From: Octopus vulgaris
Taxonomy: Eukaryota
Direction: 5' to 3'
Assembly (NCBI GenBank): GCA_951406725.2
Contig: OX597838.1
Coordinates: 25,110,001 to 25,174,000 of the forward strand
DNA length: 64,000 nt
In this document: positions 8,601 to 45,199 of the stretch, one piece after another
Position numbering within the stretch: position 1 is the first letter of the stretch
Layout: every line of letters begins with the position of its first letter
Program-made: the position numbers and the translations under genes
The notes under the pieces: model-generated
Seen by the model: only the letters and a program-made list of their open reading frames with translations
The model's database searches: none
What the model was told of the DNA's origin: nothing

Positions 8601-9063
8601 AACTTTACAATGTAGTTTTACTTTCAGTTTTTCACCCAGAATACTTTGGTAGTCTTTTATTTGACTCCATTGAGCCATAAAGTCAAAATTCCTTAAAAAC
8701 CAAGAACTGTACAGTAGGGTGTGGTTTGGAGAAGATACAGCATATATTTCTAGCAGGTTGAGTGACCACGTAGAAGCTCTCTCACTGGCTGTTGTTGAGG
8801 TTGTTGTTGCTGCTGCTTATGGTATTGGTGTTATGATTAATCCATAATATATCATTAGTTCAGTGGTCATGGTCATTCGTAAAGTAATACTTTGCACACA
8901 TAATAACATGGATAATGAATGATGCAACAGCAACAATGGTAGCTGCAACAAGAAGAACAACAGCGGCAGCAGTAACAACAACAACAACAACAACAGCAGC
9001 AGCAGCAGCTATCAGAACACCAACAATAACAACTATCAGACCACCACCACCACCACCACCACC

Positions 9064-9162
<99 letters not shown>

Positions 9163-10062
9163 CATTCAAGAATTTGGACCTGGAGATCTCCATTTCCAGC
9201 GACTTGACTTCGAGGGCCACCTCCCAGTGGTGTCAGGCGTCAGTGAAGAGCCCTCAACTATAACAAGACGACCCCAGTTTTTTTTTCCAAGGTCTGGGGT
9301 CTCCCGCCCCTAAGTCCTAGATCATCACCTAATCACCCTTACCTGTCTTGTTGCTTAGCAACAACAACAACAACAACCACCAACAACAACTGTAGCAACA
9401 GCAGCAACCATGACAGCAACAACACCAATAAAAACTGCTGGAACACCACCACCACCAACAACAACAGCAACAGCAAAAGCAGCAATGATGACAACAACAA
9501 CAACAACACCAATACCAGCTATCAGAACACCAACACCGCCACCACCACACCACAACAGAAGTAGCAGCAGTGACAACAACAACATCAATATCAGAACACC
9601 ACCAACACCAACAACAAAACCTAAACCACCACCACCACCAATAACAATTAGCAGAATACCACCAACATAAACAACAACACCACAAATAACAGCTATCAGA
9701 GTACCACCACTGCCAACAACAACATTAACAGTAACTATAACACCAACACTATAAACCAAAAAAAAAACAGAACACCACTAGCATTAACAACAACAACAAC
9801 AAAAATCATTTTCCATGTACAACAACAGCAACAACAGGCTTCTGATTGGATTAATACTGTTGCAAAATAAACTCTTTCATATGACCTACACCGCTGACGG
9901 AACGGATTGTTGTAGTTGTTGCTACTACTTTTATATACTGTAGGGTGGGGGCAAAACCTTACAGTGAGGACCAGATTAAATCCATTGGGTTACTGCTGCT
10001 GTTGTTGGTGGTGGTGTTGTCATTTAACTGTTTAGCATTCAGATTACTCTGCCAGACGTAAT

Positions 10063-16256: not shown

Positions 16257-16389
16257 ACGCCTGTATTTGTCTCCCACTGCAGCTTGACAACTGGTGTTGG
16301 TGTATTTACATCCCCATAACATAGCAGTTTGGCAAAAAGAGACCAACAGAATAAATATCAGGCCAAAAAGAAAAAGAGAAGTATTTTGT

Positions 16390-16710
16390 CGAGGGGGGGA
16401 TTTTGTCTGGGAGGAGGGATTTAGTCCAGGAGGGGGGATATTGTCAGGGAGGAGGGATTTTGTCAGGGAGGGAGGATTTTGTCCAGGAGGGGGGATTTTG
16501 TCAGGGAGGGAGGATTTTGTTCAGGAGGGGGGATTTTGTTAGGGAGGAGGGATTTTGTCAGGGAGGGGGGATTTTGTCCAGGAGGGGTGATTTTGTCCGG
16601 GAGGGAGGATTTTGTCTAGGAAGGGGATTTTGTCCGGGAGGGAGGATTTTGTCCAGGAGGGGGGATTTTGTCAGGGAGGAGGGATTTTGTCTGGGAGGAG
16701 GGATTTTGTC
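16390..16710. repeat. G-rich ~18-19-bp minisatellite (gggaggagggattttgtca)
   Basis: About 17 degenerate tandem units. Confidence 0.9.
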
Positions 16711-18019
16711 CTTGTACCATGTGTTTTTGTGTATTAAAGTGTGTGTGAGTGTATGTATGTTTGTTTAGTAAAGTGTGTGTGTAGTCTGCAGGTATAGTCT
16801 GCATGTTAATACACATGTTTGCATGTTTTGTACATTAAAAAAACATCTTAATGTACAAACCATGCGAACATGTATATTAAAATAGGCACGTACATGCAAA
16901 CTAGACACACACACACACATGCCTGAACACACACACACTCTTTACTAAACACACACATTCTTTACTACATAAACACACACATTCACATACATACATCTCT
17001 ATACATATACAGAATTATATTGACACAAAAAATGTTTTGTTTCTTTTCTTCTCTTCTTCCATCTTTCCCTCCCTCTTTCTTTGCTCAGTCCCTCTCTCTC
17101 TCTCTCTCTCTATTTCTCTTTCCTTGCTACATCTCTCTTTCTTTGCTACGTCTCTCTCTTTCTCTTTTCCTCTCTCTCTTTCTTTACTGTCTCTTTCTCT
17201 CAATAATTCTTTTTCTCCTGTCCTATCTCTCTTTTCCAATATTTCTTTTACTTCATCTTCATCTCTCTCTCCCTTCCTACCTTTCTTTTTTTCCAATGAT
17301 TCTTTCACCCCCCCCCCCCATCCTCTCTCTCTCTCTCCCCATTCTTTCTCCCTCTCAATATTTCTTTTACTTCATCCTTCTCTATCTCTCTTCCTCCTCT
17401 CTCCCTCCCTCCCTCTCCAACCCATCTCTCTCAATAATTCTTTTCCAGTTCAGACAATCTTATGTAATATACACTTCATCAGATTAACTGCTAGACACTG
17501 TTTTAATGTCTTATATTACTACCGCCTCCTCCACCCCATCTTTCAGACAATAAGCCCTCATTATTATTGTTGATAGTGGTGGTGGTGGCGGTGGTGGAGA
17601 ATACCAGGAAAAAATAAAATTTCTTCTGAACTAAAGTCCAGCTGCATTTTTGTCTGGGATAGGTTTCACTCAATTACTGGGATTAGTTTAAGCCACCACA
17701 CTCCTTCCGCCTAAATTTGTCACATTATCTCCATGACAAAAATTTTTATTATCTCAGCAAGAATTATCGAAGGCAGTGGCAAGCTGGCAGAATCGTTAGC
17801 ATGCCGGACAGAAATGCTTTTAACAGCAGTTCGTCCATCTTTACATTCAGTGTTCAAATTTCACTGATGTCGGCTTTGCCTTTCATCTTTTCGGGGTCAA
17901 TGAAAATAAGGACCAGTGGAGCACTGGAGTTGATGGAATCAACTAGTACTCTTCTACAAAATTTCAGGCCTTGTGCCTATAGTAGAAAGGATTATTATCA
18001 TTATTATTATTACTATTAT

Positions 18020-28806: not shown

Positions 28807-28807
<1 letters not shown>

Positions 28808-29070
28808 TTTATTTTAAGCAGCAGAAAATTCAACAAAACCTGTTACTCTGAGTTTCACGTTCCCGTTCGTCGGACAGTTTTTGCTAGAATATTCTAGCAA
28901 AACTGTCCGACGAATATTCTAGCAAAAACTGTCCGACGAACGGGAACGTGAAACTCCGAGTAACAGGTTTTGTTGAATTTTCTGCTGCTTTAAATAAAGC
29001 ATATTACTCTACCACTGGTATTTGAGTACTTTTTTTCCACCTTGTTTCACATTTATGTGTTTACTCCGGT
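28807..29070. mobile_element. Palindromic ~265-bp element with hammerhead-like motifs on both strands (Penelope-like pLTR derivative), copy 1
   Basis: Internal inverted repeat around ttgctagaatattctagcaa. Motif aaaactgt-CCGACGA-acgGGAAcgt-GAAA-ctc(a/c)gag-TA-acaggtttt at 28924-28971(+) and 28835-28882(-). Flanked by (TA)n. Confidence 0.7.
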
Positions 29071-29075
29071 ATATA

Positions 29076-29139
<64 letters not shown>

Positions 29140-29334
29140 TATATACTGAAAGAAATATATGGATACATTTATACTCATGAACACAAAAATATGGGCAGAT
29201 GGCAGATGTGTGCGAAAACAACTGTACGGGGTACATGTAGTAAACAATATGGAATTCAATATAGCGAGAAAGCAGCATATAAAGAACTTTATATTATTGA
29301 AATACACCGGGTGTGTGTGTGCGTGTGTGCGCGA

Positions 29335-29700
29335 GCTTGTTTACCAACCACATAATTCTGGGTTCAGTCCCACTGCGTGACACCTTGGACAAGTGTCTTC
29401 TACTATAGCCTCGGGCCGACCAAAGCCTTGTGAGTGGATTTGGTAGACGGAAACTGAAAGAAGCCCGTCGTGTATATGTATGTATGTGTGTGTTTGTGTG
29501 TCTGTGTTTGTCCCCCTAGCATTGCTTGACAACCGATGCTGGTGTGTTTATGTCCCCGTCACCTAGCGGTTCGGCAAAACAGACCGATAGAATAAGTACT
29601 GGGCTTACAAAGAATAAGTCCCGAGGTCGAGTTGCTCGATTAAAGGCGGTGCTCCAGCATGGCCGCAGTCAAATGACCGAAACAAGTAAAAGAGTAAAGA
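29335..29700 (+). mobile_element. SINE family A copy (5'-truncated) between the two palindromic HHR elements
   Basis: Match to 2774-3200 with CpGs retained. Confidence 0.85.
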
Positions 29701-29961
29701 GTATATGAAGTAAGGAAGAAATTATAAGGGGTGCATGTATAATACAAGCTACACAAAAAATATGCGGATGCATACTCGGCGATTTACTTGAAGGTTAGTT
29801 TATTTAGGGGGTATAGAGGAGTTAAATATGGAAAGGTGGGGGGGAAAGTCATTGAGCAAACATCTATGTGTGTGTGTGGGTGGGTGTGGGTGTGTGTGTG
29901 CGGCAATTTAAAGTGCGTGTGTAGTTAAATTACTTATATATATGTATATATATATATATAT

Positions 29962-30226
29962 ACCGGAGTAAACACATAAATGTGAAACAAGGTGGAAAAA
30001 AGAGTACTCAAATACCAGTGGTAGAGTAATACGCTTTATTTAAAGTAGCAGAAAATTCTACAAAACCTGTTACTCTGAGTTTCCCGTTACCGTTCATCGG
30101 ACAGTTTTTGCTAGAATATTCGTCGGACAGTTTTGCTAGAATATTCTAGCAAAAACTGTCCGACGAACGGGAACGTGAAACTCAGAGTAACAGGTTTTGT
30201 AGAATTTTCTGCTGCTTTAAATAAAG
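29962..30226. mobile_element. Palindromic hammerhead-bearing element, copy 2 (inverted relative to copy 1)
   Basis: Near-identical reverse complement of 28807-29070; motifs at 30062-30109(-) and 30151-30198(+); flanked by (TA)n. Confidence 0.7.
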
Positions 30227-30531: not shown

Positions 30532-30640
30532 CTGAAACAAGTCTGGTGCCAGACTGCATCGAGTGCATGTTCAATAACAGTTGACGTATTGTCCACGGCA
30601 ATGGCAAGTGTACATCCAGGGCAAAGGGGCAGTTCCCCAG
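30532..30640 (-). CDS. LIMK: Internal exon encoding the N-terminal half of a LIM domain, (A)GELPLCPGCTLAIAVDNTSTVIEHALDAVWHQTCF(R); probable LIM kinase
   Basis: Polypyrimidine acceptor ttctctctctttgttttctcgacag and donor TTCAG|gtagtt; 109 nt, phase 1 in and phase 2 out. C-x2-C-x21-H-x2-C fits the LIM pattern and resembles the recalled LIMK1 N-terminus ELPVCASC...ALNADWHADCFR. The LIM call is more certain than the LIMK assignment. Confidence 0.78.
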
Positions 30641-43560: not shown

Positions 43561-45199
43561 CATACGAGATACTTTATTTCACGTTGCTCCAGTCCACTCA
43601 GCTGGCAAAAGTGAGGAGTACCAGTAATTCAAGTGGGGGCAGCCTTGTCACATTCTGTGTCATGTTGAATCTCTCTGAGAAGTACGTTAAGGGTACATGT
43701 GTTTGTGGAGTGCTCAGATTATGGATTTTGATTCCTAGCCCAGGCATTGCACTGTATATTTCATGTTATTCCACACTCATTTCGTCGCCTAACGTGTGAC
43801 ACGTCACACACCTGTACAGGTAATGTTGATTTGATAGAGAGAGTGACCTTATGTGCAAAACAAACATTTGATCTTTATAAACAAATCATCTGTGTGGTTG
43901 TTCAGCAAGTAACTGCAGGACTCTCGTACATCATCTAATGATGGGAGGGTCCATGATACACACACACACACATATACACACATATATATACACACATGGC
44001 TGTTATTTTCAGATTATACATTTTCAGATAAGGTGGTCTTGGACTCCACAAACATGATGGTCATGGCAGGGTTGCTTTTATTCAGAATAGGTAATCTAGG
44101 ACCAAACAACAACAACAGACATGTCATCATCTGAACTCATCATCTCAGCTTTCTACATCAGTCCTTTGCTGACATTTATTGACTAATTTGACTGGATCTA
44201 ACAGATCTGAGAGGACTCCCCTCCTCAAATGCTCCTGCCCCTCTCAAAATACTTAGTCTTGTGAGTTACTTGGTGCCCCTGCCAATGTAGGTGCCACTTA
44301 AAAAGCATGCAGTCCACATTGTAAAGTGGTTGGTATTTGGAAGAGCATCCAGCCGCAAAAACCATGCCAAAACTGACCTCACCTGCACTGGTGCTACATA
44401 AAAAGCACTCAGTCCACTCTGCAGAGAGGTTGGTGTTAGGAAGGGCATCCAGCCGCAAAAACCATGCCAAAACTGACCTCACCTGCACTGGTGCTACATA
44501 AAAAGCACTCAGTCCACTCTGCTGAGAGGTTGGTGTTAGGAAGGGCATCCAACTGTAAAAACCATGACAAATCAGACTCAGTAGCCTGGGGTAGTCTTCT
44601 ACCTGGCCAGCTCCTGTCAAACTGTCCAACCCATGGAAGGCAGGCATTAAACGATGATTATGTGTGTGTGTGTGTGTGTGTGTGTTTGTGTTTGTGTGTG
44701 TGCATGTGTTTGTCTCCCACCTGCCACTTGCTAACTGGTGCTAAGTGTGTTTCCATCCCCATAACTTAGTGGTTCGGCAAAAGAGACTGATAGATAAGTA
44801 CTAGGCTTTAAAAGAAAAAAAAAACCATATAAGTACTGAGACCAATTCATTTGACTAAAAAATTATCTAAGTTGGTGCCCCAGCATGGCCACAGTCTTAC
44901 AAGTGAAACAAGTAAAAGACAGAAGACATATATACACACACATAGACACACACACACGCAAACTCAGTTGTTCACAGGAATTCATTGTTATCTTCACAGC
45001 AACTACCACTATCACCATGATGACTAACAGAATGGTGGGGGAAAAACCATTGTCATCGCACCCCCAAAATGTACAAGATAACAGAAGGAACAAATAATAT
45101 GTGCATAACTTCACAAATGTTTCTATGTATGTGTGTATATGAATGAGTGTGTTATGGTGAGGAGATCCCATACGTGTTTTCGACATACATACATACATA

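Follow-up and report, generated by a model that had tools for sequence, protein, structure and literature searches.

Positions 28807 to 30226 of the window, the 64,000-nt stretch of Octopus vulgaris DNA analyzed here (contig OX597838.1, positions 25,110,001 to 25,174,000), very probably consist of two short, folded-back insertions of the 3′ end of an abundant Hydra-clade Penelope-like element (PLE), lodged in (TA)n beside a LIM exon. The four hammerhead motifs that they carry would be passengers: folding predicts that double-stranded RNA sequesters them and that they do not cut. The locus is ordinary repeat debris, and a lineage with C in place of U at core position 4 (U4C) and a rule of one tail per inverted pair are modest additions to a known kind of element.

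An earlier note, made from the sequence alone, had described an inverted pair of units. Indeed, the two units lie at 28807–29069 (+) and 29963–30226 (−) and are identical at 254 of 264 columns; as inverted arms, the pair extends over 304 nt with 95% complementarity, at a distance of 960 nt and flanked by TA. The pattern CYGANGA-N10-GAAA had four matches in the window versus 0.14 expected by chance, with cores at 28933 and 30160 on the plus strand and at 28873 and 30100 on the minus strand, in agreement with the note's two motifs per strand, 1227 nt apart. The motif parts were also as it had described: stem I ctgt/acag, stem II acg-GGAA-cgt, ctc(a/c)gag and GUA. Similarly, the variant that it had placed at 30062 reads CCGATGA with a GTAA loop and an A-G mismatch in the basal pair of stem II. 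Each unit folds back on itself, as claimed, through 93-nt arms that are 97% complementary in one unit and 94% in the other (predicted fold of unit 1: −153.5 kcal/mol, z −22.9), and both units stand in (TA)n. All four motifs have C at core position 4, whereas a type I hammerhead requires CUGANGA...GAAA...UH. An Rfam scan at E ≤ 10 returned no hammerhead match, only repeat-driven matches of the miRNA type. The features of the region are as follows.

28807–28894, minus strand: inverted arm of unit 1, a tail-less pLTR 3′ end; ends in AATAAAG against (TA)n; the same end as in full-length copy L097
28877–28840, minus strand: hammerhead motif of the unit 1 inverted arm, core CCGACGA
28887–28940, plus strand: fold-back junction of unit 1, with a 26-bp tandem duplication (period 26); common to unit 2 only
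28912–28999, plus strand: direct arm of unit 1, a pLTR 3′ end with the signature of the oldest (A-type) subfamily, CCGACGA/GGAA/T
28929–28966, plus strand: hammerhead motif of the unit 1 direct arm, U4C core; putative cut after 28962
29000–29069, plus strand: PLE tail of unit 1, 70 nt; ends in CCGG against (TA)n; in tandem copies it sits between pLTR and ORF (L097, 1811–1881)
29070–29962, no strand: spacer, host intron DNA outside the element; made up of (TA)n, a SINE-like repeat of high copy number and single-copy stretches
29963–30033, minus strand: tail of unit 2, 71 nt, from the alignment with unit 1
30034–30121, minus strand: direct arm of unit 2, with the younger C-type signature (CCGATGA, G at 11.1) and the TAGAA sub-lineage marker
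30104–30067, minus strand: hammerhead motif of the unit 2 direct arm
30093–30146, minus strand: junction of unit 2, a copy of the unit 1 junction
30139–30226, plus strand: inverted tail-less arm of unit 2, chimeric, with an A-type core like unit 1 and the TAGAA marker like the unit 2 direct arm
30156–30193, plus strand: hammerhead motif of the unit 2 inverted arm
30532–30640, minus strand: host exon, first half of a LIM domain; AG/GT ends; Pfam LIM E 0.011, below the curated cut-off

The element behind the units was traced in the octopus's own genome (2.8 Gb). A search with the direct arm yielded 1,445 candidates, and all 40 that were scored matched at 96–100%. Exact 24-mers of the motif had 3,190 matches with C4 and 3,798 with T4, about 7,000 in all. 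At 30 loci inspected, the 3′ end was fixed, mostly with TA next to it, while the 5′ side varied among plain truncations, longer extensions and inverted arms with differing junctions. Walking stepwise upstream from the pLTR end led through a 3′ UTR into an ORF, and the order in the full-length copy L097 is pLTR, tail, 727-codon frame, 3′ UTR, pLTR; pLTRs and partial tandems are present in loci L097–L101 and L109. In L062, L063 and L065, broken ORFs lie collinear over 2.9–3.3 kb with ends of the CCGACGA/GGAA type present in the window. The note's minimal type I hammerheads of Penelope pLTR type are thereby borne out, the pLTR end being shared with copies that encode reverse transcriptase (RT) and endonuclease, and the copy number and RT-ORF linkage that it had raised amount to thousands of copies and to ends physically joined to RT-endonuclease frames. 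Its alternative of a dual-polarity non-autonomous family failed on that same linkage and on junctions that vary from copy to copy.

The single 727-codon ORF (protein P0001) contains RWK, DKT, CxCX5C, CxxC and CxH motifs, which Craig 2021 gives as Hydra-clade diagnostics (PMC8557442). The window units are ends of a Hydra-clade PLE, the clade being assigned from these diagnostic motifs in the predicted protein. RWK, DKT, CxxC and CxH are conserved across an alignment of P0001 homologues, and the RT motifs read FDIIDFYP and YRDD. The best fold match of a structure model of the protein (pLDDT 91.7) was telomerase RT (TERT; 3du5, E 7.9e-10). A Pfam scan of P0001 gave no match, and a PDB sequence search found no solved relative. 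The endonuclease is putatively of the GIY-YIG type, based on a YxA...YxG motif (VVYRA...YTGAS, in which Tyr, Tyr and Gly are invariant in 90 of 90 aligned proteins) and on the Pfam match of one homologue (PF01541, in one of six homologues scanned and not in P0001); no GIY-YIG fold was among the fold matches listed for the whole protein model. The CxCX5C linker is kept in all eight copies linked to the window's CCGACGA/GGAA end. Its second Cys is invariant in 90 of 90 aligned proteins and is Phe in 18 of 23 copies with C- or D-type ends (L061, L204–L231, L098–L110; some loci overlap); the younger copies with Phe were still amplified and still target TA. A young subfamily has many near-identical intact 727-codon frames (9,556 candidates, 150 scored; e.g., L097–L101, L109). 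It is probably a recently or still active PLE and is a candidate for Hydra-clade biochemistry. At least 915 relatives of the ORF, nearly all unnamed, occur in metagenome and genome assemblies. Pfam fails to recognize the ORF, which leaves the Hydra clade under-annotated.

The arrangement of ends was evaluated in an ordered sample of 60 loci, drawn in chromosome order from the CCGA list (40 loci) and the CTGA list (20 loci). Fold-back units are common in the family: the sample contained 22 head-to-head pairs, in 20 of which exactly one arm was tailed and in none of which both were; one of the two exceptions has a shortened tail and the other is rearranged. Tail ends ran into TA in 36 of 41 cases and tail-less pLTR ends in 34 of 37. 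Overall, free 3′ ends enter TA in 70 of 78, consistent with the (TA)n targeting proposed earlier. Each ~263-bp unit of the window is a 5′-truncated head-to-head insertion, a tail-less pLTR end inverted relative to a pLTR end with its 70-nt tail, and the motif on each strand is that of an ordinary inverted 5′-truncated PLE end. Inverted 5′-truncated copies and tails are typical of PLEs (PMC8557442), and minimal hammerheads on opposite strands 100–700 bp apart have been seen earlier (PMC4209133).

A mechanism can be transferred from a Poseidon element. According to PMC11167929, the PLE protein extends both target strands and uses two internal RT start sites whose distance equals the tail, and insertion occurs in vitro without hammerhead cleavage. 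By analogy, the protein of the octopus element would nick both strands of a TA tract and prime two cDNAs, with one starting at the pLTR end and the other 70 nt beyond it, at the end of the tail. Both would stop early and be joined at their truncated 5′ ends, giving a fold-back with a motif on each strand. The one-tail-per-pair rule supports such a two-primer origin of inverted PLE ends. Elsewhere in the sample, L116 (1900–2900) contains two fold-back units that belong to different subfamilies and are separated by 730 bp. Each is joined at a GCTAGC palindrome immediately upstream of the hammerhead, a junction also present in L166 and L170.

The two units of the window are related through their middle. 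The pattern of the junction, with its 26-bp duplication, had two matches in the 2.8 Gb, both in the window, and one of the units was therefore copied from its neighbor. A TAGAA variant is present in both arms of unit 2 and absent from unit 1. It is a sub-lineage marker with 158 matches in the genome, and all nine readable cores of this sub-lineage, from 25 loci examined, have T7 and a GCAA loop. The direct arm of unit 2, with T7, GTAA and G11.1, is close to this younger type, although most readable TAGAA copies have C at position 11.1. An A-type core combined with TAGAA had three matches, one being the inverted arm of unit 2 and the others lying at two other loci, versus 398 with TTGAA. The younger-subfamily markers in its outer parts make it likely that unit 2 inserted later and was patched with sequence from unit 1; the chimera is read from three to four diagnostic sites. 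Unit 1 would derive from the oldest subfamily, and unit 2 would have been started later by the younger sub-lineage, its middle being copied from unit 1, 900 bp away.

The same element could have reached this state if unit 2 had arisen from unit 1 by inverted duplication of the local DNA through the TA tracts, followed by mutation and by conversion from arm to arm. We regard this history as rather unlikely, though it deserves weight: the junction is identical and unique, the units agree at 254 of 264 columns, and both ends lie in TA tracts. However, it needs in both arms a change that is rare (2 of 400 other A-type copies) and that would coincide with a real sub-lineage marker of 158 matches. 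The changes at N7 and 11.1 also match younger subfamilies, and the interruptions in the flanking TA tracts differ between the units. We retain the later, patched insertion as the best reading of unit 2.

The earlier note had read the pair as a retrozyme- or viroid-like architecture, with the caveat that the local fold-back might outcompete the ribozyme fold. This caveat turned out to be decisive: the sense motifs are predicted to be buried on both strands. Because the arms point away from each other, transcription of either strand produces the antisense of a motif before the sense motif itself. In equilibrium predictions, which leave out protein-assisted refolding of the kind found for another PLE hammerhead (PMC11167929), stem I pairs in the 1,420-nt transcript had probabilities <1e-35, and forcing the ribozyme stems cost 141 kcal/mol on the plus strand and 143 kcal/mol on the minus strand. 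The predicted fold of the isolated motifs was not a hammerhead either; by a rough estimate, the double-hammerhead fold of an isolated 44-nt motif lies at −16.8 kcal/mol versus a dimer minimum of −18.0 kcal/mol. Stems I–III are complementary in 42–45 of 46 copies, and the basal stem II pair in 25 of 46.

It is accordingly very improbable that the region is a retrozyme-like module, in which same-strand hammerheads 1227 nt apart dimerize and set free an RNA of ~1.2 kb, linear or circular, the precursor being either the host pre-mRNA or an antisense transcript. Such a module would fit the two motifs on each strand, the palindromic stem III together with the closeness of the roughly estimated double hammerhead to the dimer minimum, and the minus strand, which is likely transcribed as intron. 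However, every sense motif is predicted to pair with the antisense arm made before it or with the other unit, and U4C is present in every one of the four cores. The DNA between the units is single-copy (its stretch 29700–29860 had a single match in the genome, the remainder being TA and one high-copy repeat), whereas metazoan retrozymes are described as head-to-tail repeats of 150–450 bp (PMC7229834). Finally, four-motif clusters also arise by chance: L116, with two subfamilies, is a second one within 60 loci, and such clusters therefore arise by accumulation. The inversion of the units, the single-copy spacer and the unique junction speak against the retrozyme architecture, and the motifs' predicted burial and a 1.2-kb unit that is not a repeated family speak against the suggested excision of a 1.2-kb RNA. 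No contig spanned the stretch among the contigs of four sequencing runs, which were dominated by paralogous repeats. Weakest of all, and ruled out by the RT-frame linkage and the single-copy spacer, is a DNA transposon of the MITE or foldback type carrying the spacer between terminal inverted repeats, since the 304-nt arms (95% complementary, 960 nt apart, TA flanks) that would suggest it are pLTR ends of an RT element whose copies are variably 5′-truncated with a fixed 3′ end.

The folded-back PLE ends carry a core that has a history of its own. The CCGA core is a subfamily character, inherited from master copies that transposed with U4C, and not local decay. C4 was present in 45 of 46 copies chosen by similarity of their 3′ UTR to CCGA-type queries and is therefore the master-copy state. 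The same count led to the rejection of CpG decay as an explanation of why copies differ in their core, though at the level of the master copies both changes, C4-to-T and C7-to-T, fall at CpG. The ordered sample yielded 77 motifs, divided among subfamilies A (CCGACGA/GGAA; 16 motifs, 9.2% from the column majority), B (CCGACGA/GCAA; 5 motifs, 1.1%), C (CCGATGA/GCAA; 25 motifs, 1.5%) and D (CTGATGA; 29 motifs, 2.4%, inflated by a sub-lineage variant), with two motifs outside them. The D subfamily has the type I core CUGANGA.

A tree of the 3′ UTR with the hammerhead excluded (47 rows, some being two arms of one locus; duplicate loci dropped) forms a ladder of A, C and D, in which D is one clade (100/100) inside C and has the shortest end branches. 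Intact 727-codon frames were seen only with D ends: 5 of 8 D rows had one, compared to none of the 17 A and C rows, which were mostly partial. A protein tree with outgroups (30 rows) placed the root between A and C+D with a support of 73–77; in an AU test on 16 of these rows, a root on the stem of the D (CUGA) subfamily was not rejected (p 0.194). The core is ctga in all 26 Hydra rows (25 families) of File S2 of Craig 2021 (PMC8557442), and U4 is therefore ancestral. On the evidence of these trees, U4 was likely lost and CUGA later regained in the youngest subfamily, nested inside CCGA.

The A and D hammerheads differ at 4 of 38 sites (position 4, N7, loop N and 11.1), of which three are tolerant sites (p 0.009 to 0.047, according to the definition of a tolerant site). 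One of 32 constrained positions changed, which is unlikely at UTR rates (p 0.005–0.04) but not at the rate just downstream (p 0.43). Because the sequence just downstream is equally conserved, ribozyme-specific selection on the hammerhead is suggested only. The covariation of stems I–III that the earlier note had looked to did not appear: there were no compensatory pair changes among copies of this young family. Across Hydra families, the stems vary with pairing kept (File S2 of PMC8557442). Taken as a whole, we lean toward a history in which a PLE lineage swapped an invariant core base (U4C), went on transposing to thousands of copies in three or more successive subfamilies with the rest of the fold conserved, and reverted to CUGA in the now-dominant intact-ORF subfamily, stalled PLE cDNAs being completed by copying a neighboring older insertion. 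In the open-access literature, we found no report of a U4C/CCGA core in PLE hammerheads, of cephalopod PLE hammerheads, or of twin priming or template switching in PLEs. A 2017 paper in RNA Biology reportedly deals with dimeric Penelope hammerhead variants and may list C4 variants.

The octopus family resembles several known systems. Like Hydra-clade PLEs (PMC8557442; e.g., Hydra-2_aMil and Hydra-1_Obim), it has a single ORF with RWK, DKT, CxCX5C, CxxC and CxH, targets (TA)n, and has a pLTR hammerhead and inverted 5′-truncated copies. Its stem I (ctgt/acag), stem III (actc-N-gagt) and GUA site are also those of Hydra-2_aMil, which likewise has a GNRA loop. In contrast, Hydra-1_Obim is a different family, with other hammerhead stems and a protein that, compared by eye, is visibly diverged. 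The octopus family is ~3.5 kb long with a 1.1-kb 3′ UTR, compared to <3 kb for most Hydra-clade elements, and its tail is 70 nt where 30–40 is usual. Its A, B and C subfamilies are U4C versus ctga in all 26 Hydra rows of File S2, and most of its younger copies have Phe at the second Cys of the clade's CxCX5C.

With the minimal PLE hammerheads of Cervera and De la Pena 2014 (PMC4209133), the window motifs share type I, short stems, a palindromic stem III, low expected activity as monomers, and opposite-strand pairs from truncated PLEs. They differ from those described there in a stem II of 2–3 pairs and in C4, the core variant reported being U3-A8. With metazoan non-LTR retrozymes (Cervera and De la Pena 2020, PMC7229834; bioRxiv 10.64898/2026.07.22.740005), they share a type I hammerhead derived from a PLE pLTR and two motifs on one strand, but the window has no head-to-tail tandem, host DNA lies between its motifs, and these are non-canonical and predicted to be sequestered. 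Poseidon PAc of Anolis (Frangieh et al. 2024, PMC11167929) likewise has two fixed 3′ ends defining a tail, an AT-rich target, and a hammerhead near the pLTR-ORF junction; it belongs to a different clade, and the octopus family is known from genomic evidence only. The same core change is found in a U4C viroid hammerhead, which, as cited in Perreault et al. 2011 (PMC3088659), is much slower in vitro and yet sufficient for infectivity; in the octopus, the bearer of the change is a retrotransposon lineage that numbers thousands of copies in the genome.

The earlier note had also placed the units in the pre-mRNA of a LIM gene. A partial LIM exon was found at 30532–30640 (−), and the units begin ~305 nt downstream of its donor site on the minus strand, but the next LIM exon was not found in the window. 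This exon may resemble exon 2 of a LIM kinase; a contig of a presumed RNA run covers the LIM exon only. In minus-strand RNA, the unit pair would form a 263-bp near-perfect duplex plus local hairpins ~305 nt from the splice donor, and this duplex would likely be a substrate for A-to-I editing. Within the spacer, 29334–29698 is a very high-copy interspersed repeat, SINE-like, with an internal microsatellite and an A-rich end. Elsewhere in the window, long CAA/CAC-rich triplet arrays at 8925–9724 could be a low-complexity coding exon or a plain microsatellite, and minisatellites occur at 16383–16711 (period 19, 17.5 copies) and 44290–44571 (period 100, 2.8 copies).

The likeliest effect of the locus, if it has any, would be that of long double-stranded RNA near a splice donor. 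For the family, descriptors requiring CUGANGA would miss nearly half of the motifs. The role of the hammerhead in endonuclease-bearing PLEs is stated to be unclear (PMC8557442), and the successive natural C4 and U4 subfamilies in one protein background make this role testable. If the history of loss and regain is true, selection would act on the fold, or on slow cleavage assisted by protein, rather than on fast cutting, and the octopus subfamilies would constitute a natural in vivo series on the role of PLE hammerheads.
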